Positions 7,607-37,660 of a stretch of 64,000 nt of DNA are shown in pieces. The notes beneath the pieces were generated by a model that made no database searches, was not told where the DNA came from, and saw only the letters and a program-made list of their open reading frames with translations. The first letter of the stretch is position 1, and every line of letters starts with the position of its first letter. The position numbers and the translations under genes were made by a program. The stretch covers positions 12,323 through 76,322 of the forward strand of contig CAUPVK010000002.1 of NCBI GenBank assembly GCA_963514895.1. The letters run 5' to 3'. The DNA comes from an uncultured Candidatus Saccharibacteria bacterium. GTDB lineage: Bacteria > Patescibacteriota > Saccharimonadia > Saccharimonadales > Saccharimonadaceae.

Positions 7607-8169
7607 TGTTGGCCGATTCCTTTCTTGAATGTGACACTGTAGGTTGAGGTGTAGGGATAGCTACCGGCGTCTTTGTCTTGCAGTGTGATGGATTGGAAGC
7701 TGACGCTGGAGAAGATGGCAGAGTCATTGAGGCGGTTGCGTAGAGCAATAGCATCGTTGTAGCCTTTGGCGCGGATACTCAGCGTGGTGGGGGTGCCAAA
7801 GGTGGTTGGGTCGATATTAAGCTGCTCGATGATAACGTTGGGCGGAAGGCGATCGGCAATAAGCTTGATGAGGCGGGTGTACGAGACCTGTTGGTCGAGG
7901 ATGGCTTTGGCAGTAGTGAGGTTAGCCTTGAACTCAGTAGCTTCACGCTTGACGGTGGCATATTCGGCAGTTTTGTTGTGGTTGCGCTCTACGGCGGCTT
8001 CGTTGCGGCCACGCTCGGTTGCGATGAAAAAGTACACACCGCCGATTTCAGCCAAAACGACAAAGACCAAGACAAAGAGTAGCACAACATAGCGGCGTAG
8101 CAAGGTGTTGGTGCGGCTCGCAGCGAGCTGTTTTTTATACGCTGGTGGCAATAGATTAATCATTTCCAA
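7603..8169 (-). CDS. pilN: PilN-like type IV pilus assembly protein
   Basis: The 'INLLPPAYKKQ' N-terminus plus a TM helix is typical of PilN. It overlaps pilM and the downstream gene. Confidence 0.65.
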   Translation of the reverse strand: MEMINLLPPAYKKQLAASRTNTLLRRYVVLLFVLVFVVLAEIGGVYFFIATERGRNEAAVERNHNKTAEYATVKREATEFKANLTTAKAILDQQVSYTRLIKLIADRLPPNVIIEQLNIDPTTFGTPTTLSIRAKGYNDAIALRNRLNDSAIFSSVSFQSITLQDKDAGSYPYTSTYSVTFKKGIGQQ

Positions 8170-25075: not shown

Positions 25076-27079
25076 ATGAAACGATGGGGATTGAGCGTCG
25101 TGCTGCTGTGCGGTGCACTCTATGGGCTGGCGATAGCTCCGCCAGTGCGGGCGAATACATCGCTGTGCGGCACAAATGATCAGCTATTCAGAGCGGTGCG
25201 TCGGCCACTAGCGACTGACTCAGCACCAGCAGCGCGTGCGATGGCATGGCTCAAACAGATGATGGAGCCAAAGCGTAACCAGGGTGATGGTAGTACCATT
25301 ACGCCAGCACAAGCCTATGGCTTTGATTACCAAGCAAAGGTGAGCGGGCGCTTCGCACTTGCGCATTCGCGACAAACCGAAAGTGCGACGCCACTGACGA
25401 TTCCTCATGCTGCGCACGCTGCCGAAGGCTACCGTGGTACGGTGAAGGGGACGGCACCAACGGGGGCGAACCCACGCGAAGTGCGGGCGTATCTCTACAG
25501 CGATGCTGAATATGAGCAGCCAGCTGCTATACCCGCAGTAGTGCAGCCGGATGGCACATGGACGCTTGACCTCTCACCTGTTAATCCGGCGTTTGCGGGG
25601 TCATGGCACTTCCGGCTATACGACAAAGTGACGGGGCAGCAGATTGGTGAGAGCTGGCCGCGACCTGTGACGTATAAGAATCTGGAGGTGCAGCTCTACG
25701 CGGTATCTGATAAAGAATACCTCCAAGCTACGCAGCCAGCCCAGGCAGATAATACCTTTAGTTTCGATGCAGTAGGTAAGGGGCATAAATTAATTCGCCT
25801 CTATGACACGGCAACCAAAACTATCATTGCCGAGTATTTCAAGCCAGAGCTGGTGGGGCTGATTCGCTCGTACGAGTATGCACCAGGTCAAGATGGCTAT
25901 GGTACGCCGCGTGAGTCGTATAGCTATGTGTATGATCAGTCGCTGGCGCTACTCGTGGCGATTGGTGCGGATGATCGAGCAATGGCGGATAAGCTCGTGC
26001 ATGGCCTAAGCGCAATCCAAGTCAAGACGGGTGAGCAGAAGGGGGCCTTCCCGGCGAGTGCGCACCAGCTTGATTATACAGGGATTCAGCAGCCGATTTA
26101 TTATACTGGTGGCATTGCCTTTGTGCAGTATGCGCTCATCCGCTATATGGAAAAATATGGCGACCAACAAGGGGTGCGCCAGATGATCCGTAATACCTTC
26201 CGCTGGCTCGAGACGATGAAGACGACGACTGGCGATGCTGCCGGGCTATTCCGCGGCGGAGTGCGGATTGACAATGGCGTCAAGAAGGATATTGCGTGGC
26301 ATGCCACCGAGCACAACACTGACATGTGGCATGTGTATGAGCGAGCAGCCCGCGTGCTGGGTGATAAGCAGTACGTTCAGAAGGCAGATGAACTTGCCAA
26401 AGTAACGGTGGCAAAGCTATGGAATACAACCGAAGGGCGATTTAACCAAGGATACAACGACAGCAGCAAGGCGCTTGATACAACAAGCTGGGGCTCGATC
26501 TTTCTCAATGCGATTGGCGAATACGACAAAGCTAAGCAAGCCCTTGATCACACTGCCACCTACAAAACAACTGATGGCACCGCAAAAGGCTATACGCCGT
26601 ATTTGACGGGTAACTACGTGCCAACCGTATGGTTTGAGGGGACGTATGGTGTGGCACAGGCATATAATATCGCTGGGGACGCAGCCACGGCGCGGGCAAT
26701 CTTGGCAGATACTTACCCAGCGCAGCGGCCAAACGGTGCATGGCAGTACGCCTCCAAGGCAGATCTGCCAAATGAACTAACCAATGCAAACTCAGTGGCA
26801 TCGACAGCGTGGTATGTGTTGGCGGCCAGCTACCCAGAGGTGATTTGGTCGGAATGCCGCGCAGCACTAGCGACAAACCCGCTCGATCCAAGCGCACCCA
26901 ACCAACCCACTCAACCAGCCAAGCAAAGCCAATTCCACGGCCTCTTGGCCGACACTGGTATATCACTGTGGCAGTTTGTCCTCGCGACAGCAGCGCTGCT
27001 CGCTGGCGGGATGCTGGCAGCACGCTATGCACGACGACGTGATGCTGGCTACTTCAACCCACGAAAAGTGCTTGATTGA
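25076..27079 (+). CDS. Cell-wall-anchored surface protein with an LAxTG sorting signal; the central region may be an (alpha/alpha)6 glycoside-hydrolase-like fold
   Basis: It has the signal peptide 'MKRWGLSVVLLCGALYGLAIAPPVRA'. The C-terminal 'LADTG' (26945-26959) is followed by a hydrophobic helix and 'RYARRRD'. The 'YVYDQSLALLVAIG' type repeats suggest a toroid fold, though this is weak. Confidence 0.7.
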   Translation: MKRWGLSVVLLCGALYGLAIAPPVRANTSLCGTNDQLFRAVRRPLATDSAPAARAMAWLKQMMEPKRNQGDGSTITPAQAYGFDYQAKVSGRFALAHSRQTESATPLTIPHAAHAAEGYRGTVKGTAPTGANPREVRAYLYSDAEYEQPAAIPAVVQPDGTWTLDLSPVNPAFAGSWHFRLYDKVTGQQIGESWPRPVTYKNLEVQLYAVSDKEYLQATQPAQADNTFSFDAVGKGHKLIRLYDTATKTIIAEYFKPELVGLIRSYEYAPGQDGYGTPRESYSYVYDQSLALLVAIGADDRAMADKLVHGLSAIQVKTGEQKGAFPASAHQLDYTGIQQPIYYTGGIAFVQYALIRYMEKYGDQQGVRQMIRNTFRWLETMKTTTGDAAGLFRGGVRIDNGVKKDIAWHATEHNTDMWHVYERAARVLGDKQYVQKADELAKVTVAKLWNTTEGRFNQGYNDSSKALDTTSWGSIFLNAIGEYDKAKQALDHTATYKTTDGTAKGYTPYLTGNYVPTVWFEGTYGVAQAYNIAGDAATARAILADTYPAQRPNGAWQYASKADLPNELTNANSVASTAWYVLAASYPEVIWSECRAALATNPLDPSAPNQPTQPAKQSQFHGLLADTGISLWQFVLATAALLAGGMLAARYARRRDAGYFNPRKVLD

Positions 27080-28596: not shown

Positions 28597-29226
28597 TCAT
28601 TGCCCCTCTATCTTATCCATCAGTTTCGTCAGCTTCACGCCACCGTACATCCAGTGGTCAGCGCCGCGGTATGCACCGGAGTTGTTGACTTCGCCGCGTT
28701 GGGTGTAGATCAGGCGGGTGAGGGCAGACAGGCGCCAGGTTTTGCCGCCGTAGGATACCTCGCGTGGGCCGGCTACAACGGCGGTGATAGTTGGGTCTTT
28801 GATAAAGTGGATGCTCGCGCCCTTTTCAATACCCTTTTTATAAAAGCTAAAGCGCTGATCTTGCTGGTGCGCGGTGGTAACGGCTTCGAACGAGTCGGCC
28901 TTGCTAGCGAATTGAGTTGGCTTTGGGTAAATTTGCGTGCCATCAAGGGCAAGCAGCAGCCGCTGGATAAGATATTCATCGAGCGCAAAGAACTCACTCC
29001 GGCCAATGCGGTGCTTGCTAAAGACTTCGTGCAGGAGCTGCTCCTTTTTGTGGTAATTATCTACCTCAATGGCGACCAGCCGCTGCAACCCAGTGATATT
29101 AGAATAGCCGTTGGACTCAAGATACTGCATGCGCGCCTCGAAGCGGTCGGTGCTGGTCTTGCCAATCTTGACCAAGCCATCAATGGCACTGGTCATAACA
29201 TAAATCACTCCGCGCGGCTCGGACAT
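28597..29226 (-). CDS. GIY-YIG-like T5orf172/MUG113 domain protein
   Basis: 'GVIYVMTSAIDGLVKIGKTSTDRFEARMQYL......LLHEVFSKHRIGRSEFFAL' fits the T5orf172 pattern. The C-terminal half was not identified. It is divergent from hsdM. Confidence 0.5.
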   Translation of the reverse strand: MSEPRGVIYVMTSAIDGLVKIGKTSTDRFEARMQYLESNGYSNITGLQRLVAIEVDNYHKKEQLLHEVFSKHRIGRSEFFALDEYLIQRLLLALDGTQIYPKPTQFASKADSFEAVTTAHQQDQRFSFYKKGIEKGASIHFIKDPTITAVVAGPREVSYGGKTWRLSALTRLIYTQRGEVNNSGAYRGADHWMYGGVKLTKLMDKIEGQ

Positions 29227-29292: not shown

Positions 29293-30771
29293 ATGAATAT
29301 GAGGGATCTTGAAAGGCAGCTGTGGGCTGCAGCGGATAAATTACGGGGTAATATCAGCTCGTCGGATTATAAATATGTTGTGTTGGGGCTAATTTTTCTG
29401 AAATATGTTTCAGATGCGTTTTCGGCGCGGTATCAGGCGGCGGTTGATGACAATTATGATCCCGAAGATCGGGATTGGTATCTGGCGGAGAATGTTTTTT
29501 GGATTCCCAAGGAGGCTCGCTGGGAGCACCTCGTGGCAAGCGCCAAGCAGCCAGAAATTGGCGTATTGGTTGATAGCGCCATGGAAGCAATTGAACGCGA
29601 CAATCTAAGTTTGAAGGGCGTTCTGCCGAAAAATTATGCTCGCGAAGCTCTAGATAAACGCCGCCTGGGTGAGCTTATCGATTTGTTTACAAACATCACA
29701 TTTGACACTGCTAGTTCTAAAGATTTGCTTGGTCAAGTCTATGAATATTTTATGGGTATGTTTGCCGACAGCGAGGGTAAACACGGCGGCGAATTCTACA
29801 CGCCGCGCTCCATCGTCAAGCTGCTGGTAGAAATGCTTGAGCCATACAGCGGGCGTGTGTACGACCCATGTTGCGGTAGCGGCGGTATGTTCGTCTGGAG
29901 CGAGAAGTTTGTCGAGGAGCATGCTGGACGTGTCAGTGATATCGCGGTGTATGGCCAGGAGCTCAACGAGACTACCTGGCGATTAGCGAAAATGAACATG
30001 GCAATTCGCGGAATAGATGCAAATATCAAACGCGGCGACACCTTGATGGATGACCAGCTTCCCGACCTGAAAGCGGATTATATCTTGGCCAATCCACCGT
30101 TTAATATTAGTGACTGGGGTCAAGAACATTTGCAGACTGACCCACGCTGGAAGTATGGACTGCCGCCAAAGGGTAATGCTAACTTTGCGTGGATTCAACA
30201 TATGATTCACCATTTGAGCCCGCGCGGTACGGCAGGCTTTGTGTTGGCAAACGGGAGCATGAGCAGCCAAACTGGCGGTGAAGGTGATATCCGTAAGCAG
30301 TTAGTGCTCAATGATATGGTTGACGCTATCGTCACGCTGCCGAGCCAACTGTTTCTCAACGTAGCTATACCGTGCTGCCTCTGGTTTGTGTCGCGTGATC
30401 GCGCCAATCGTCACGGCAAAGTACTGTTCATTGATGGGCGTAATTTGGGCAAAATGGTAACCCGTCGCAACCGCGAGCTGACCGAAGAAGATATTGCCAG
30501 GGTAGCGAAGACATATCATGACTACAAAACCGCCAGTGCGAATTACACTGACCAGCCGGGTTTCTGTAAAGTCGCTGATCTAGAAGAAATCAAGCAGCAT
30601 GATTATGTACTGACACCTGGCCGCTACGTGGGCATTGAAGAAACTGAGGAAGATGATGAGCTGTTCACTGAGAAATTTGCCCGGTTGACAGCTGAGCTAG
30701 AGGGTCAGTTTGCGAAGAGCCGCGAGCTAGAGGCGAAAATCAAGGTCAATTTGGAGAAGATCAAACTATGA
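29293..30771 (+). CDS. hsdM: Type I restriction-modification system, N6-adenine DNA methyltransferase subunit
   Basis: It has an HsdM N-terminal domain ('[10 protein letters not shown]'), the SAM motif '[11 protein letters not shown]' and the catalytic 'NPPFN'. Confidence 0.93.
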
Positions 30772-30801
30772 ATCTTCAAGGGGAGCTAAGCACTGGGGCG
30801 A

Positions 30802-30822
30802 CTATAAAGAACTTCTTTATAG
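30802..30822. promoter_or_regulatory. Perfect palindrome between hsdM and the next gene
   Basis: CTATAAAGAA-c-TTCTTTATAG lies 31 nt after the hsdM stop. It could be a hairpin attenuator/terminator or a protein-binding site. Confidence 0.4.
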
Positions 30823-30910
30823 TACAGTGGTTTTATATTAAAAAGACTCACCTTGTAGTTAAATTAGCACAAAGCTATTCTCGTCCGTCGGTTTCATTCG
30901 GGGGTGGTTT

Positions 30911-32119
30911 GTGAATAAAAAATACTCAATAGAATTTGCCGTAGAGGCTTCGACTGAATTCAAAGCGATCAATCGTCTCAAAGACCTAGGCGTAAGTCAT
31001 GCCGATGAGGCGAAGCTATCCGACCTCGATCGGCAGGCCGGTCTCTTCATGATTAAGGTATCGATGCTAGAGTCTGAAATGACCGATGAGGTGTATCATA
31101 AGATATCTAAGGCAAAAGACGTCTTCATACTTTCTGATGAACTTTCGGCTGCTCGGGGTGAAAAAATCTTACAGCTCACACTGGTGATTGAAAGGCAGCT
31201 TAAGAAGTTGCTTGTCTGCATAATCCCAGAGATAGAAAAGGTTTTGATAGATATCATTAATAATCATCAAAAACATGGCATAAAATCAACACCCACAGGG
31301 ATAATCGAGTGGTGTCAAAAGATTCATGATTTTTCATTTGGTGAGCTTCCGGGCGTTCTAGAGGAAGATATATCACGGCTTGCTAGGGAAAGGCTTAATA
31401 CGGGAGATGCCATGCTGTTGCTAATAGCAGAGTCGAAAGATTTTGATAACCTAAAGTTACGGGCGACAAATTTATTTGAGACCAGGACAGTTTGGAATAG
31501 TATTTGTTCTATTTTGGAAAGCCCTGTGCAGTACGAGCATATATCTGGAGCTTTGAATAAAGTTATAGATGCACGCAATAAAGCGGCGCATCAGAGCATA
31601 ATAACCAAAAAAATACTCGACCAAACTAGAAAAAATCAGAAACACATAATGTCACGCATTGGTACTATTAAGAGCACCTACCGTGAAAACCTAAAGGTGA
31701 ACATGGAGCAGCTAAGTAAGTCTATGAAAGCTATCATGGATTCTGTAGCAACGATTGATCCTATGATATTTACCGAATATCAAAAACATATTTCTCAGAC
31801 ATTTCGACCTCTTACCGAAGCTGTTGCTAGATTGAAGCTAAATATTACCTCGCCAGAATTCAAAAAAAATGTTACATATAATTCAGAAATCCAGTCTCAG
31901 TTATCGAAAGCCACTGCCGAATCTCTTAGAAACATGAAGTCCTTGCAAGTGTATAACGATATTGCTAGAGAGCTGGCAAAAAATAATTTCACTAGGTATT
32001 TGCAAAATTCACTAAGCGAGATAGACAGAATACAGCCAGATATTCAGAGACTACTTGATACAAAGGGGACAAGAGGGGGTGATGAGGCGGCAGAAAAAGA
32101 TGAGGAGCAGAAACAATGA
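30911..32119 (+). CDS. Uncharacterised protein with a HEPN-like (Swt1-type) R-x4-H motif, embedded in the Type I R-M operon
   Basis: This is a 402-aa ORF with a GTG start. 'FGELPGVL...VWNSICSIL...LNKVIDARNKAAHQSI' is present, with the R codon at 31574-31576 and the H codon at 31589-31591. The all-helical, coiled-coil-like C-terminal half ends in an acidic tail. The stop overlaps the hsdS start (ATGA). Confidence 0.5.
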   Translation: MNKKYSIEFAVEASTEFKAINRLKDLGVSHADEAKLSDLDRQAGLFMIKVSMLESEMTDEVYHKISKAKDVFILSDELSAARGEKILQLTLVIERQLKKLLVCIIPEIEKVLIDIINNHQKHGIKSTPTGIIEWCQKIHDFSFGELPGVLEEDISRLARERLNTGDAMLLLIAESKDFDNLKLRATNLFETRTVWNSICSILESPVQYEHISGALNKVIDARNKAAHQSIITKKILDQTRKNQKHIMSRIGTIKSTYRENLKVNMEQLSKSMKAIMDSVATIDPMIFTEYQKHISQTFRPLTEAVARLKLNITSPEFKKNVTYNSEIQSQLSKATAESLRNMKSLQVYNDIARELAKNNFTRYLQNSLSEIDRIQPDIQRLLDTKGTRGGDEAAEKDEEQKQ

Positions 32120-33156
32120 TGCAGATTGTTTCGCTCTCCGATGCAATTACCTTGCAGCGTGGGTTTGACTTGCCCACCTCACAACGTAGACAGGGTAAAT
32201 ATCCAGTCGTAGCGTCTACCGGAACAACTACGACTCATGATAAGTTTAAGGTAAAAGGTCCAGGTGTGGTTATTGGTCGCTCTGGCAGTATTGGTGGTGG
32301 TCAATATGTCGAAAGTGACTTTTGGCCCCTAAATACTACACTTTGGGTCAAGGATTTTAAGGGTAATGATGAGAAATTTATTTATTATACTCTTAAGTCT
32401 TTAGACTTTTCTAGCTTTAACGTAGGTGCAGCTGTACCTACGTTAAATAGGAACCACTTGTCGGCGCTAAAAGTGCGCATTCCTGACGTAGATAAGCAAA
32501 AGAAAATTGCCAATATCCTCGGCAGTCTTGATGAAAAAATCGAGCTCAATCGCCGCATGAACAAAACCCTCGAACAGCTCGGTCAAGCTCTCTTTCGTCA
32601 TTATTTTGTTGATAAAGCTAGGCAGAGTAATGGCAATATACAGACTATACCTTTAGGAAAAAAGCTTCATCCAAAAAGAGGCAGAAGCCTTCAAGCTAGA
32701 GATATGATTTGTGGTGACACGCCGGTTATTAGCGGTGGACTGAAGCCAGCCGGATTTCACAATGAAGCAAATACGACCGCGCCAGTTATCACGATAAGTG
32801 CATCTGGAGCAAATGCTGGTTTTGTATCTGTCTGGGGTGAACCAGTTTGGTCGGCAGACTCTTCGTATATTGACTCAACAATTACCAAATATGTCTATAC
32901 CTACTATTTATTCCTCAAGAACAAGCAAAAAGAGATATACGATATGCAAACTGGCTCTGGTCAGCCGCATATTTATCCAAAGCACATAGAGCTTTTGGAG
33001 ATTGCTGATTTATCAGAATGCGAGTTTAATGATTTCGAGCAGAGAGTACGACCATTGTTTGATATGATACATGAAAACAAGAAGGAAATAGATTATTTAT
33101 CCAACATTCGTGATTTGCTTTTACCAAAACTAATTTCCGGAAAGATTAAGATATGA
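32116..33156 (+). CDS. hsdS: Type I restriction-modification system specificity subunit
   Basis: Two target-recognition domains are separated by the conserved helical spacer 'IANILGSLDEKIELNRRMNKTLEQLGQALF', and it ends with 'IRDLLLPKLISGKI'. Confidence 0.85.
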   Translation: MMQIVSLSDAITLQRGFDLPTSQRRQGKYPVVASTGTTTTHDKFKVKGPGVVIGRSGSIGGGQYVESDFWPLNTTLWVKDFKGNDEKFIYYTLKSLDFSSFNVGAAVPTLNRNHLSALKVRIPDVDKQKKIANILGSLDEKIELNRRMNKTLEQLGQALFRHYFVDKARQSNGNIQTIPLGKKLHPKRGRSLQARDMICGDTPVISGGLKPAGFHNEANTTAPVITISASGANAGFVSVWGEPVWSADSSYIDSTITKYVYTYYLFLKNKQKEIYDMQTGSGQPHIYPKHIELLEIADLSECEFNDFEQRVRPLFDMIHENKKEIDYLSNIRDLLLPKLISGKIKI

Positions 33157-34442
33157 AACGCACAAAAGCACAAATAGACAATTTATTAGACGATATAGCG
33201 CAATTTACCATAGTGCTAAGCAGTAGTAATTATAGTATAAACTATGGACCCAAAAACCTAAATTTCTCATCTTTCGAGAGAAGTATCGATGAAAATCTTA
33301 AATACTGGCACGATAAAAAGGGAGGCCAAGGCTTTTATGAGGAGTGGAAAAACCTCAAAAATAAATTTAATAGTATTAAAGAACATTTAGAGGCCGTTAG
33401 CGATAGCCCTGAATCAAAAGGTAATCTATCAAACTATCTATATAGTCATTTATCCAATGACAGAGTCGATAATAATGGAAAGCATACATATAGATTATCT
33501 GTAAATAGCCCTATTATCTCTGACGCAAATTGGCAATCCATAGACAGATTCATAGATTTTTATCTTGACCGTGTAGATGATGGTAGAGAATTACCAGACG
33601 CAATACGAAGGTACGTAGAGTTATGCAAAACTCCAATTCAGGTAGGAAATAGCCTATATCAAAGTTCAAATTATTCATATTATCCTGCGTTATTTATACT
33701 AAAAAATGAATTATCGCCTAAAAATGTAAGTATTAAGAATTTTGAACAAAAGACGCTACGGCCAGCGCAAGATAAGCTAGAGCAGTTGTTGCAAGAAGCT
33801 GGCGAGAACCAACAAGAAATAACCCATTTTATAGAAGAGAAGCATAAGGAAGTCCAGGATCAAGTTGATAAGAATATCGCTGAGATGGACGACTACAAAT
33901 TTAAAGTCAATGATTGGGAGACGAAAAAACATAAAAAACTGGATGTACTGGAAGATACTTATAGAAAGAAGTTGCAGCTTGAAGCGCCGGAAGTGCTTTG
34001 GAATGAACGGTCTGAAAAGTATAGAAAAAGAGCCAATTGGTGGACTGTAGGCTTAGTTCTTGCGGCGATTATCTTGTTGCTTGTCATCGCCTGGTTTGTC
34101 CATTCGCTTCATGAATTCCCAAAGGGGATTACTGAAAAAGTACCATTCTTGTCGCAGCAAGTACTTTTTATTGGTGTCATTTCTTTCTTTGTTTATATCA
34201 TACGCGTCATAGTAAAAATCGTTATGTCAAATCACCACATTGCAATGGAGTATGAACAAAAAGCGGCATTGACGAGGTTTTATCAGGCGTTAACCTACAA
34301 AGGGATTGAGGTAGACGATAACGAGAAGTTAATCATCATGAGCGCTCTATTCTCTAAAGCTGACACCGGTTTGGTTAAAACGAGTGAATCTGTTGACTTG
34401 GATAGCGTCTTGGGATTGATTACAAGGAATTCTGGAAAATAG
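33153..34442 (+). CDS. Uncharacterised protein with a C-terminal two-TM module, embedded in the Type I R-M operon
   Basis: This is a 429-aa ORF. The N-terminal ~290 aa are soluble, Lys/Glu/Asn-rich with a coiled coil. Then come 'ANWWTVGLVLAAIILLLVIAWFV' and 'VLFIGVISFFVYIIRVIVKIV', followed by a ~70-aa tail. The start overlaps the hsdS stop (ATGA). Confidence 0.55.
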   Translation: MKRTKAQIDNLLDDIAQFTIVLSSSNYSINYGPKNLNFSSFERSIDENLKYWHDKKGGQGFYEEWKNLKNKFNSIKEHLEAVSDSPESKGNLSNYLYSHLSNDRVDNNGKHTYRLSVNSPIISDANWQSIDRFIDFYLDRVDDGRELPDAIRRYVELCKTPIQVGNSLYQSSNYSYYPALFILKNELSPKNVSIKNFEQKTLRPAQDKLEQLLQEAGENQQEITHFIEEKHKEVQDQVDKNIAEMDDYKFKVNDWETKKHKKLDVLEDTYRKKLQLEAPEVLWNERSEKYRKRANWWTVGLVLAAIILLLVIAWFVHSLHEFPKGITEKVPFLSQQVLFIGVISFFVYIIRVIVKIVMSNHHIAMEYEQKAALTRFYQALTYKGIEVDDNEKLIIMSALFSKADTGLVKTSESVDLDSVLGLITRNSGK

Positions 34443-34528: not shown

Positions 34529-37500
34529 ATGACCGAATCTCAAATCGAACAATACGCGCTTGATATTCTAGCTAATCTTGGCTGGCAAGTTTTACATGGG
34601 TCAGATATTGGTCCGGATGGTGCTATGGCTGAGCGTGAGCTGCGGCAGGTAGTGCTGCTGGGGCGGCTGTATGGTGCCCTGGTGCGGCTCAATCCACACA
34701 TTCCAGAACCAGCTTTAAATGAAGCGATGCGGCGTTTAACGCAGATTAGTAAGCCAAGCTTGATCGAGAATAACCACGTTTTTCATCAACTGCTGGTGGC
34801 TGGTGTGCCGGTGCAGTATCGCACATCGAGTGGCGAAGTGAAACACGATATCGTGCGGGTGGTTGATTTTACCTCGCCAAAAAACAATGATTTTGCGGCG
34901 GTGAATCAGCTGACGGTTCTGCAGGGTGACTATAATCGCCGGCCGGACATTGTGCTATTTGTGAATGGCTTGCCGCTGGTGGTGATTGAGCTGAAAAATG
35001 CGGCCGACACGAAGGCGAATTTGGCGGCAGCGTATCAGCAAATCCAGACGTACAAGCGAGAGATTAGTGATCTGTTCCGCTTTAATGAATTATGCGTAAC
35101 GAGCGATGGACTAGAGGCGGAGATGGGCACGATCACCAGTCCGCTGGAACGAATGATGCCATGGAAGACGATTGATGGTGAGAAGGAGGTTGGCAATGTG
35201 CCGATGCTGGGAGTGTTGCTGCGTGGTGTGTGCACGCCTGAACGCTTGCTGGATGTGGTGCAGAATTTTATCGTATTTGAGCATAGTGATGGTGACAAAT
35301 TGATTAAGAAAGTAGCTGCTTACCATCAATATTGGGTGGTAAATAAGGCGCTTGATCGGACGCTGGCAGCCAGTAGTGAACGCGGCGACCAGCGGGCTGG
35401 CGTAGTCTGGCATACGCAAGGGTCGGGCAAGAGCTTGAGCATGGTGTTTTACACTGGCAAGCTGATGAAGTCGCGCGATTTGCACAACCCGACCATCGTG
35501 GTGGTGACGGATCGCAATGATCTTGATGGTCAATTATTCGGTACGTTTAGTGCTTGTCGCGAGCTACTGGGAGAAGATCCAAAGCAAGCTAATTCACGGA
35601 GTGAACTCAGGAAGCTGTTGCAGCGCGAAGCAGGTGGAATTATCTTCACAACAATCCAAAAATTCTCGCCTGAGGGTGACGAAGATAAATTACCGATTTT
35701 GACTGATCGACGCAATGTTATCGTGATGGCAGATGAGGCCCATCGCAGTCAATATGGCTTGAAGGCACATGTCCGAGCTAGTGATGCTCAGCTGGTGTAT
35801 GGTTATGCCAAGTATATGCGCGATGCCTTGCCGAGTGCGAGCTACATTGGCTTTACGGGTACACCGATTGAAACGGATGACAAGTCAACGCCAGCGGTGT
35901 TTGGCGACTATATCGATATTTATGACGTCGAGCAGGCGGTGAAAGACGGCGCAACGGTGCCGATTTATTATGAGAGTCGGCTGGTTGATTTGAACATGGA
36001 CGAGGCAACGCGGCAGTGGCTGGATAAGGAAGTTGATGATTTGCTGGAGGGCGAAGAATTGAGCCGTCAGGATGCACTGAAGGCCGAGTATGCACAGAAA
36101 GAAGCCATCGTTGGTAATAGTGAGCGGCTGAATACTATCGCTTTGGACATTATTCAGCACTTTGAGGCTCGGCAAGGCGTCCTGAGTGGCAAAGGTATGA
36201 TCGTGACGATGAGCCGCAGTATTGCGGCTGATTTGTATGAAAAAATTGTGGCGTATCGGCCGGATTGGCACAGTGACGATGACGCACGCGGCGTAGTAAA
36301 GGTGATTATTACTGGTAGTGCTAGTGACCCTGACCATTTGCAACCGCATATTCGTAACAAGCAGCGGGTAAAGACGATCGAAAAGCGCATCAAAGATCCG
36401 AACGATCCGCTTGAATTGGTGATTGTATGTGACATGTGGCTGACAGGATTTGATGTGCCGAACATGCACACCATGTATCTGGATAAACCGCTCAAAGGGC
36501 ATAATTTGATGCAAGCGATTGCCAGGGTGAATCGAGTGTTTCCTGGGAAAACCGGCGGTTTGGTGGTTGACTATCTGGGTGTAGCGGGGGCGCTGCGCGA
36601 TGCTATTTCTGACTATACACGGAGCGGTGGTCAAGGCGTACCACAGCTTGATATTGCTGAGGCGGTGGCACAGATGCAGATGCGTTACGAGGTGGTGCGC
36701 GATTTGTTTGGTAACTTTGACTATCAACGATATTTTACCGCACCAACCGACCAACAGCTACAGATTATCTTGGATGCAGAGGAATATATTTTAGGATTGG
36801 AAGATGGTGAGAAGCGGTTGAAGCAGCATGTTTTGGAACTGAGTAAAGCATTTGCATTGGCGATGCCGAGGCCCGAGGCGCTGAAAATTCGCGAAGAAGT
36901 GGCGCTCTTCCAGGCAATAAAAGCTCGGCTGGAGAAAGTGTCCAGCTCGGCGGTGGTGACTGATGCTGAGTATCGCAGTGCGCTGAAACAAATTGTTGAT
37001 AAAGCAATTGCGCCAGTCGGTGTGGTCGATGTGTTTGAGGCGGCAGGGCTCAAAAAGCCGGAATTGTCGATTTTAAGTGATGAGTTTTTGGCCGAAATTC
37101 GTCATATGGAGCGCAAGAATTTGGCGGTGGAGGCGTTGCAAAAGCTGCTCGCTGATGAAATTAAGCTACGATTTTCGCGCAATTATGCCAAGGATACGAA
37201 GTTCTCAGACTTGCTGAGTCAAGCCTTGACACGGTATAGAAATGGGACAATTGAGGCCGCGCAAGTGATAGAGGAGCTGATTGCTATCGGCCAGGAAGTG
37301 CGCCAAACTGTCGAGAATGGAACGATTGACGGCCTCAGCGAGGATGAGGTTATCTTTTATGACGCGCTGGTTGAAAATGGTAGTGCTCGCGAAGTACTGG
37401 GTGATGCGCAGCTGCGTGATATCGCAAAAGTGTTACTAGAGCAAGTGCGTCGTGATGCCACGATTGACTGGGCAGAGCGTAAAAATGTTCAGGCAAAATT

Positions 37501-37660
37501 GAGGGTTAACGTCAAAAAGACGTTGGCAAAATATGGCTACCCACCAGATCAGCAGGCGCTAGCAACTGACATGGTACTAGAACAAGCTAAGCGCTATGGT
37601 AACGAGTGGAGTCAAAGACGCGCGGCGTATGATGCTGGTGGAGCGAGTCTGCTTGATTAA
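34529..37660 (+). CDS. hsdR: Type I restriction enzyme, endonuclease/translocase subunit
   Basis: It has an N-terminal PD-(D/E)xK region ('PDIVLFVNGLPLVVIELK') and SF2 helicase motifs 'HTQGSGKS', 'VMADEAHRSQ', 'FTGTP' and 'QAIARVNR'. Confidence 0.93.
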   Translation: MTESQIEQYALDILANLGWQVLHGSDIGPDGAMAERELRQVVLLGRLYGALVRLNPHIPEPALNEAMRRLTQISKPSLIENNHVFHQLLVAGVPVQYRTSSGEVKHDIVRVVDFTSPKNNDFAAVNQLTVLQGDYNRRPDIVLFVNGLPLVVIELKNAADTKANLAAAYQQIQTYKREISDLFRFNELCVTSDGLEAEMGTITSPLERMMPWKTIDGEKEVGNVPMLGVLLRGVCTPERLLDVVQNFIVFEHSDGDKLIKKVAAYHQYWVVNKALDRTLAASSERGDQRAGVVWHTQGSGKSLSMVFYTGKLMKSRDLHNPTIVVVTDRNDLDGQLFGTFSACRELLGEDPKQANSRSELRKLLQREAGGIIFTTIQKFSPEGDEDKLPILTDRRNVIVMADEAHRSQYGLKAHVRASDAQLVYGYAKYMRDALPSASYIGFTGTPIETDDKSTPAVFGDYIDIYDVEQAVKDGATVPIYYESRLVDLNMDEATRQWLDKEVDDLLEGEELSRQDALKAEYAQKEAIVGNSERLNTIALDIIQHFEARQGVLSGKGMIVTMSRSIAADLYEKIVAYRPDWHSDDDARGVVKVIITGSASDPDHLQPHIRNKQRVKTIEKRIKDPNDPLELVIVCDMWLTGFDVPNMHTMYLDKPLKGHNLMQAIARVNRVFPGKTGGLVVDYLGVAGALRDAISDYTRSGGQGVPQLDIAEAVAQMQMRYEVVRDLFGNFDYQRYFTAPTDQQLQIILDAEEYILGLEDGEKRLKQHVLELSKAFALAMPRPEALKIREEVALFQAIKARLEKVSSSAVVTDAEYRSALKQIVDKAIAPVGVVDVFEAAGLKKPELSILSDEFLAEIRHMERKNLAVEALQKLLADEIKLRFSRNYAKDTKFSDLLSQALTRYRNGTIEAAQVIEELIAIGQEVRQTVENGTIDGLSEDEVIFYDALVENGSAREVLGDAQLRDIAKVLLEQVRRDATIDWAERKNVQAKLRVNVKKTLAKYGYPPDQQALATDMVLEQAKRYGNEWSQRRAAYDAGGASLLD

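Follow-up and report, generated by a model that had tools for sequence, protein, structure and literature searches.

The window analysed here is a stretch of 64,000 nucleotides (nt) from an uncultured Candidatus Saccharibacteria bacterium (contig CAUPVK010000002.1, positions 12,323 to 76,322), and it contains a complete type I restriction-modification (R-M) system with its hsdM, hsdS and hsdR genes. Our subject is a gene for a protein of 402 amino acids (aa) that lies inside this operon, between the genes for the methyltransferase and the specificity subunits (Table 1). Our analysis indicates that the protein carries a HEPN domain whose predicted catalytic residues are invariant across a large and diverse family, and the reading that we favour, set out in the last section, is that of an abortive-infection RNase embedded in the R-M operon.

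The open reading frame (ORF) has a strong Shine-Dalgarno sequence, GGGGGTGG, just 5' of its GTG start, its stop overlaps the start of hsdS as ATGA, and the gene is predicted to be translationally coupled to hsdS. A preliminary description, written from the sequence alone, had assigned to this ORF a HEPN domain marked by three peptides (FSFGELPGVL, aa 141-150; RTVWNSICSILE, aa 192-203; and LNKVIDARNKAAHQSI, aa 215-230) and by an arginine and a histidine (R222, codon cgc at 31574-31576; H227, codon cat at 31589-31591); codons and translation verify the ORF, the peptides and both positions exactly. Its placement of the gene between hsdM and hsdS is borne out by the Pfam and PADLOC matches of the flanking genes, and the R-x4-H motif is followed in the translation, as had been described, by some 170 aa that are predicted to be helical and by an acidic tail, GGDEAAEKDEEQKQ.

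Table 1. Genes, protein domains and upstream elements of the operon, in window coordinates
Feature	Position	Strand	Description
hsdM, type I R-M methyltransferase subunit	29293..30771	+	Operon's first gene; Pfam N6_Mtase 1.3e-113, HsdM_N 6e-26; PADLOC MTase_I 3e-206; GC 49%
hsdM-HEPN spacer, 139 nt	30772..30910	+	Contains a 48-aa ORF called by gene callers
Perfect AT-rich palindrome ACTATAAAGAA-C-TTCTTTATAGT	30801..30823		Arms of 11 bp; 110 nt 5' of the HEPN start
HEPN-domain ORF, 402 aa	30911..32119	+	GTG start
N-terminal alpha/beta domain, aa 1-76 (predicted)	30911..31138	+	Beta-alpha-beta-beta-alpha-beta order, ferredoxin/ACT-like (AF2 model)
HEPN domain, aa 77-252 (predicted)	31139..31666	+	H1 with E94, H2, insert of about 80 aa, H3 ending in R222-N-x3-H227, H4
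Predicted catalytic motif R222-N223-K-A-A-H227	31574..31591	+	Codons verified; R and H invariant in 82 sequences
C-terminal helical region and acidic tail, aa 253-402 (predicted)	31667..32116	+	Hypervariable, pLDDT 34-73
hsdS, specificity subunit	32116..33156	+	Pfam Methylase_S 2.5e-22, two stretches; PADLOC Specificity_I 1e-109
DUF6161/AbiZ-like gene, 429 aa, between hsdS and hsdR	33153..34442	+	Pfam DUF6161 1.4e-54; PADLOC AbiZ 1.1e-48; GC 37%
hsdR, restriction subunit	34529..37660	+	Pfam HSDR_N, SWI2_SNF2, T1RH-like_C; PADLOC REase_I 1142 bits

Conservation and homology of the R-x4-H protein

An R-x4-H string appears in 39% of composition-preserving shuffles of the 402-aa protein, and the form R-[NDH]-x3-H in 5.8% of them. 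The string alone is thus not beyond chance, and the case for a HEPN domain rests on conservation and homology. A word-indexed search returned 47 close homologues, at identities down to 41%, and a library of 1.84 billion representative proteins, searched with a profile, extends the family to 117 representative clusters at 50% identity, whose names are uninformative. R222, N223, A225 and H227 are all invariant in an alignment of 31 close relatives. A set of 82 diverse full-length family members, which share 13-48% identity with the window protein, leaves just three columns invariant, E94, R222 and H227, with D76 and W195 nearly so; the residue that follows the arginine is N in 63 of these sequences, D in 16 and H in 3. 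The preliminary description had named the conservation of R222 and H227 among homologues as a check on its reading, and the two residues do not vary in either set. Judged from these alignments, the combination of E94 with R222-[NDH]-x3-H227 is the canonical HEPN signature, the superfamily being defined by a conserved R-x4-6-H motif in which a polar residue (N, D or H) usually comes after the arginine (PMC3710099).

A further R-x4-H string, RKNQKH, lies 18 residues past the first (aa 240-245, 31628-31645). Within the close subfamily its K241 is invariant and its H245 nearly so, while R240 is variable, and since R240 is not conserved we rejected this string as the catalytic motif. The conserved K241 and H245, on helix 4, may line the active-site region.

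At threshold, the 402-aa protein belongs to no Pfam, NCBIfam or PADLOC family. Two Pfam models of relevance match it loosely, HEPN_Cthe2314 at E 0.035 and HEPN_RiboL-PSP at E 0.43, each with the R-x4-H motif at the centre of the match; HEPN_Swt1 (PF18731, gathering score 27.5 bits) gives no match to it even at E<=10, and Abi_2 (PF07751, cut-off 25.6 bits) none either. When the 82 relatives are scanned singly against Pfam, models of the HEPN clan (CL0291) account for 31 matches in total, divided among HEPN_Swt1 (14), HEPN_RiboL-PSP (8), Abi_2 (5), DUF3644 (3) and HEPN_Cthe2314 (1), and the other matches are scattered single ones to unrelated helical families. Two distant members exceed the HEPN_Swt1 gathering score, P0145 with 30.3 bits and P0158 with 30.0 bits, and the close-family profile A1 finds them among the 1.84 billion proteins at E 3.9e-8 and 3.4e-4, respectively. 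Abi_2 is nearly reached by its best relative, P0103, at 23.0 against 25.6 bits and across almost the whole model. Moreover, a core-family domain alignment from which distant members were left out (A3) and an alignment of the distant clade (A4; 7 members, 6 of them with HEPN_Swt1 matches) match each other by hhalign at 98.5% probability and E 1.9e-15, with their R-x4-H motifs in register.

Conservation and profiles thus support the HEPN reading. The preliminary description would have given that reading up if neither profile nor structure produced a HEPN match; profile matches exist, while the Foldseek comparison that it had proposed, run against the PDB, gave no significant match. Its label 'Swt1-type' holds at the level of the Abi2/Swt1 clade, by transitive homology, but not for the window protein itself, and we limit the label to that clade because the protein reaches no curated HEPN threshold and has no HEPN_Swt1 match of its own.

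Domain layout and structure models

Our structure models divide the 402-aa protein into three predicted modules: an alpha/beta domain at the N-terminus, a HEPN domain interrupted by a large insert, and a helical C-terminal region, which is hypervariable in sequence. The full-length AlphaFold (AF2) model has a predicted local distance difference test (pLDDT) score of 75, with a well-modelled helical domain at aa 77-250, and for the domain alone a model based on a trimmed alignment reaches a pLDDT of 92.8 and a predicted TM-score (pTM) of 0.85. In the numbering of the domain model, H1 spans residues 2-27, H2 29-43, the insert 55-123, H3 133-150 and H4 157-174, and the motif runs from R146 to H151. 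HEPN domains are defined by two alpha-hairpins, with frequent inserts between H2 and H3 and with the motif at the end of H3, leading into the H3-H4 loop (PMC3710099); compared by the order of its secondary-structure elements alone, the domain model agrees with this definition. The superfamily is further characterised by a four-helix up-down bundle in which the acidic residue comes near the arginine and histidine, and by metal-independent endoribonuclease activity.

The insert, made up of short helices, sits within the HEPN domain and contains both FSFGELP and W195. The preliminary description had taken a Gly/hydrophobic, Trp and RNxxAH layout as the mark of the domain; the peptides are indeed present, but the Gly/hydrophobic and Trp motifs lie in or beside the insert. 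Its picture of the protein was also incomplete, in that it missed both this insert of about 80 aa and the alpha/beta domain at aa 1-76.

Across the superfamily, the conservation of this N-terminal domain equals that of the HEPN core; Y62 is invariant in it, and D76 almost so. Foldseek against the PDB gives it weak ACT/PII-like matches (2nzc_B, probability 0.98, E 0.15). A search for fusions of the domain to other effectors, made with a profile of the N-terminal domain only, returned two short fragments and nothing more. The N-terminal-domain profile matches P0163 (E 4e-14), a stand-alone protein of 97 aa on a 37.8-kb contig, which may be a free-standing copy of the domain or a truncated gene.

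The best TM-score in the PDB, obtained with the domain-only model, belongs to PbAbiF in complex with its non-coding RNA (ncRNA; 8vz6, TMq 0.45, probability 0.47, E 0.88). AbiF is a HEPN toxin of the Abi2 type and comes from the clade to which the profiles point, and the match is no more than suggestive. Csm6 and the HEPN protein AF_0298 surfaced at E >2, and the whole-model search otherwise gave noise from long helices. A PDB match of the C-terminal helices to glutamate racemase (E 0.013) was judged spurious.

Toward its C-terminus the protein becomes hypervariable, with a mean identity of 27% over aa 301-385 against 49-61% in the rest of the protein, a pattern that is as expected for an arms-race gene. 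Three distant relatives (P0074, P0079 and P0119) keep the N-terminal and HEPN domains and carry, in place of the helical tail, a CHAP domain at about aa 290-385 (E 1e-10 to 1e-14). Such a fusion of HEPN with CHAP, a cysteine peptidase/amidase, is unusual, and one source labels a protein of this kind 'surface antigen'.

Related loci, cassette and upstream spacer

A locus 97% identical to the one in the window is present in GTDB genomes and assigns the window to a Candidatus Nanosynbacter (Saccharibacteria/TM7), a tiny oral bacterium; the close subfamily is confined to Saccharibacteria/Patescibacteria. Searching with the close-family alignment A1 yielded related loci from five genomes and six metagenome contigs, and the same search found no family member on viral contigs. 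Wherever the flanks of a close-subfamily locus are long enough to judge, the gene follows hsdM and precedes hsdS, and hsdR lies farther downstream; these loci make up about 11 architectures from Saccharibacteria. The slot is kept in two type I families, between which the HsdM proteins reach only about 35% identity. The relatives' operons carry further cargo, of defence or toxin type, namely RhuM, Fic, NYN, PIN, an OLD-like ABC-ATPase/TOPRIM, RloA/RloB, Schlafen/AlbA_2, reverse transcriptase, an AbiU2-like HEPN, DUF6119 and DUF6161/AbiZ. Some of this cargo occupies the slot between hsdS and hsdR, where other lineages have DUF6119, PIN, RloA/B, Schlafen, a reverse transcriptase or a 281-aa protein of no assigned family.

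The window's own gene in that slot has a start that overlaps the hsdS stop and, judged by its Pfam and PADLOC matches, is the second embedded abortive-infection-type gene of this operon. GC content is 37-41% over the block formed by the spacer, the HEPN gene, hsdS and the DUF6161 gene (30772-34442), against 49-50% in hsdM and hsdR and 51% in the window. Compared with locus L020, HsdM and HsdR of the window are 94-95% identical, while the HEPN protein is 50% and HsdS 74% identical. The low GC content and the divergence of the HEPN protein and HsdS beside conserved HsdM and HsdR suggest that 30772-34442 is a swappable specificity-plus-cargo cassette inside a conserved frame reaching from hsdM to hsdR, and on these comparisons the HEPN gene appears either to evolve fast or to be exchanged between operons.

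At three related loci a second, unrelated HEPN gene, AbiU2-like or of the Ymh family (PF09509), lies directly downstream of the homologue (L007 9202-9891, L024 7294-7932 and L027 2377-3102). At L027 the homologue (P0042, 1199-2380) is 44-47% identical and is followed by the Ymh HEPN gene and by a 1099-aa fusion of a PLD nuclease with an SNF2 helicase, not by hsdS; the context there is thus a different, restriction-like one, and a 329-aa ORF upstream of P0042 runs off the end of the contig. Directly upstream of hsdM, the other strand of the window carries a T5orf172/MUG113 (GIY-YIG-like) gene at 28597-29226 (-), annotated from identical public loci, with a competing 224-aa ORF of the + strand covering the same DNA. 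A TetR-family gene and a 667-aa ORF at 25076-27079 (+), the latter with no Pfam or NCBIfam match, lie farther upstream.

The 48-aa ORF in the spacer (30768-30914, +) is called in public assemblies and overlaps the stop of hsdM as ATGA and the start of the HEPN gene as GTGA. We considered it as a small antitoxin and rejected it: it has no similarity to the ORFs of 51 aa in L026 and 54 aa in L027, and in most lineages the available space is too short for such a gene. Since these similarly placed ORFs of 48, 51 and 54 aa are mutually unrelated, the ORF is probably spurious and not a gene. The spacer itself varies among lineages, being absent in L007, where the genes overlap, and 42 nt long in L015; coding sequence lies upstream in L020, L023 and L024, and most architectures have no upstream spacer.

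The palindrome within the spacer is unique in the window even when 3 mismatches are allowed, with 0 expected by chance. Related palindromes are found in two other lineages, at 7906-7924 and 7957-7975 in L008 and at 5951-5969 in L022 (which forms one lineage with L025, 3094-3112, and L026, 2974-2992); they stand 29-54 nt upstream of the HEPN homologue and differ by symmetric base changes. The palindrome family, ACTAT-W-AAGAA-N-TWCTT-W-ATAGT, occurs nowhere else in the 328 kb of DNA compared. Spacer and palindrome together are present in 3 of the roughly 11 architectures and are not general to the family. The palindrome may serve as an operator, as a hairpin in the RNA or as a site of recombination.

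Function of the embedded HEPN protein

What we observe here is HEPN homology, invariance of the catalytic residues, the domain layout, a conserved gene position and the behaviour of a cassette. As the likeliest reading, with a probability of about 0.6, we propose that the 402-aa protein acts in abortive infection as a latent RNase, encoded within the type I R-M operon as a second line behind restriction. The expected RNase activity, toxicity, dimerisation, trigger and RNA target are drawn by analogy from HEPN toxins (PMC3710099), PrrC and HEC-08. By this analogy, a HEPN RNase of the Abi2/Swt1 clade would be kept latent by self-inhibition, probably acting as a dimer like other HEPN nucleases, until a phage cue switched it on; once active, it would cleave cellular and/or phage RNA and bring about growth arrest. 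Co-expressed and co-transferred with the R-M genes, it would back up DNA restriction, and the HEPN gene, hsdS and the DUF6161/AbiZ-like gene would form a low-GC exchangeable cassette framed by the conserved hsdM and hsdR. The preliminary description had pointed out that HEPN domains occur in R-M loci, and there are precedents for this (PMC3710099; bioRxiv 10.1101/2024.01.29.577857): HEPN genes embedded in R-M operons, on the PrrC paradigm, are documented (PMC3710099), and in HEC-08, an embedded HEPN defence, mutation of the motif histidine validated its role (bioRxiv 10.1101/2024.01.29.577857).

Several results weigh against this proposal. The window protein falls below every curated HEPN threshold, its best score being 14.5 bits (HEPN_Cthe2314) against a cut-off of 27.1, and in PADLOC-DB v2.0.0 no family matches it at E<=0.01. 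Neither the whole model nor the domain-only model has a Foldseek match in the PDB at E<=0.001, the domain-only model has nothing significant in BFVD, and hidden Markov model profiles, built either for the full family or for the HEPN domain, find nothing credible among PDB sequences. No antitoxin or immunity partner was identified. Finally, the distant relatives in L009-L014 and L027 lie outside the slot between hsdM and hsdS, so that the linkage to R-M is not universal.

The missing structural matches and the sub-threshold Pfam scores would also be understandable if the domain were a non-catalytic, non-defensive accessory of the R-M system, binding RNA or nucleotides or regulating, for example, hsdS expression or the timing of methylation, or if it were not a true HEPN fold; inactive HEPN domains do exist, as in eukaryotic Swt1 (PMC3710099). 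However, inactive HEPN domains lose the R-x4-6-H motif, while here the arginine, the histidine and an upstream glutamate are invariant and the residue after the arginine is always polar over a very deep divergence. Moreover, several independent HEPN-clan models match the relatives, the profile-profile comparison stands at 98.5%, and the neighbours are overwhelmingly defence or toxin genes, so we regard a non-catalytic accessory as very improbable. An AbiD/F-like type III toxin-antitoxin system, in which a structured upstream RNA such as a spacer hairpin would neutralise the HEPN toxin and the R-M operon would be a mere landing site, is improbable too in our judgement. AbiD/F toxins are indeed of this type, neutralised by an upstream ncRNA antitoxin (PMC13064643), the family falls in the Abi2/Swt1 clade with AbiF bound to its ncRNA (8vz6) as the best structural neighbour, and in three lineages the palindrome or hairpin occurs, with symmetric base changes, in front of the HEPN gene and nowhere else. 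The spacer also folds somewhat better than its shuffles, but the effect is weak (z = -2.06), and the spacer (30772-30910) has no promoter-like or terminator-like site, no Rfam match and no tandem repeats. Most architectures, furthermore, have neither spacer nor palindrome upstream, and the palindrome fits a dyad-symmetric operator equally well.

Could the R-M complex itself hold the protein in check? In a guard arrangement like that of PrrC, binding to HsdM2S or HsdR2M2S would silence the HEPN protein, which would fire only when the R-M system was disabled by an anti-restriction factor, of Ocr or Stp type, from a phage; with no ABC-ATPase present, contact with the R-M complex would fall to the alpha/beta domain at the N-terminus or to the variable helices at the C-terminus. 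The gene keeps strictly to the slot between hsdM and hsdS throughout about 11 architectures, which come from two type I families that differ greatly, and this fits such an arrangement; translational coupling to hsdS would favour co-assembly, no separate antitoxin was found, and PrrC is a precedent (PMC3710099; bioRxiv 10.1101/2024.01.29.577857). On the other hand, the protein has no ATPase or other recognised sensor module, and an identity of 50% beside 94-95% for HsdM and HsdR is hard to reconcile with a conserved interface unless the N-terminal domain provides it. Other cargo often parts the HEPN gene from hsdM or hsdS (L007, L008, L020 and L022-L024), distant relatives sit outside R-M loci, and the fixed position would also follow if the HEPN gene and hsdS move as one cassette. 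We therefore consider a guard unlikely, and it is with the same reserve that we mention a fuller version, in which an ATPase-less guard of the type I system would travel with hsdS as a cassette and the palindrome would be their shared regulatory site. If that fuller version were true, DNA specificity and backup toxin would diversify together.

Returning to the latent RNase that we favour, its nearest known counterparts are the HEPN proteins of the Abi2/Swt1 clade (PF18731, PF07751; AbiD/AbiF; Ava_2192-like; PMC3710099). With these the window protein shares an R-[NDH]-x3-H motif that closes helix 3, an acidic residue carried by the N-terminal helices, a long H2-H3 insert, and an occurrence in R-M operons and defence islands, and it differs from them in its conserved N-terminal alpha/beta domain and its variable C-terminal helical module, replaced by CHAP in some relatives. 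AbiF has a conserved upstream ncRNA, whereas none was found for the window family, and Ava_2192 has an AAA+ ATPase that the window protein lacks. Weak, sub-gathering matches of the window protein at the R-x4-H motif also relate it to the RiboL-PSP-HEPN (PF18735) and Cthe_2314-like HEPN (PF18730) families, the former matching 8 relatives as well; however, the N-terminal RiboL-PSP domain of RiboL-PSP-HEPN is absent from the window protein. PrrC and RloC are alike in being HEPN nucleases whose genes are nested in a type I hsdMSR operon and in the expected role as a latent second line. In EcoprrI, prrC lies between hsdS and hsdR, while the window's HEPN gene lies between hsdM and hsdS. Moreover, an N-terminal ABC-ATPase regulates the PrrC nuclease, whereas Pfam, NCBIfam and PADLOC find no ATPase in the window protein, whose N-terminus is the 76-aa alpha/beta domain, and neither Pfam nor PADLOC reveals any sequence similarity between it and PrrC/RloC. 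HEC-08 (DUF3644-type; Payne et al., bioRxiv 10.1101/2024.01.29.577857) is likewise a single-gene HEPN protein embedded in a multi-gene immune system; the histidine of its R-x4-6-H motif is essential for defence, and 3 relatives of the window family match DUF3644 weakly. HEC-08 has a zinc-finger-like C-terminus and belongs to Hma systems of cultivable bacteria, whereas the window family has other flanking modules and no PADLOC model.

Since HEPN RNases in R-M operons are already established, by PrrC, by the HEPN survey of 2013 and by the guilt-by-embedding work of 2024, our finding adds a member and not a concept. That member is a hitherto unannotated family, centred on Patescibacteria and comprising about 117 clusters, which has N- and C-terminal modules of its own and no Pfam, NCBIfam or PADLOC model. 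The fixed slot between hsdM and hsdS in two R-M families offers a tractable test of PrrC-type guard logic without an ATPase. To our knowledge, Saccharibacteria are ultra-small epibionts that largely lack CRISPR. Their type I R-M operons appear as platforms for stacked, exchangeable abortive-infection cargo.

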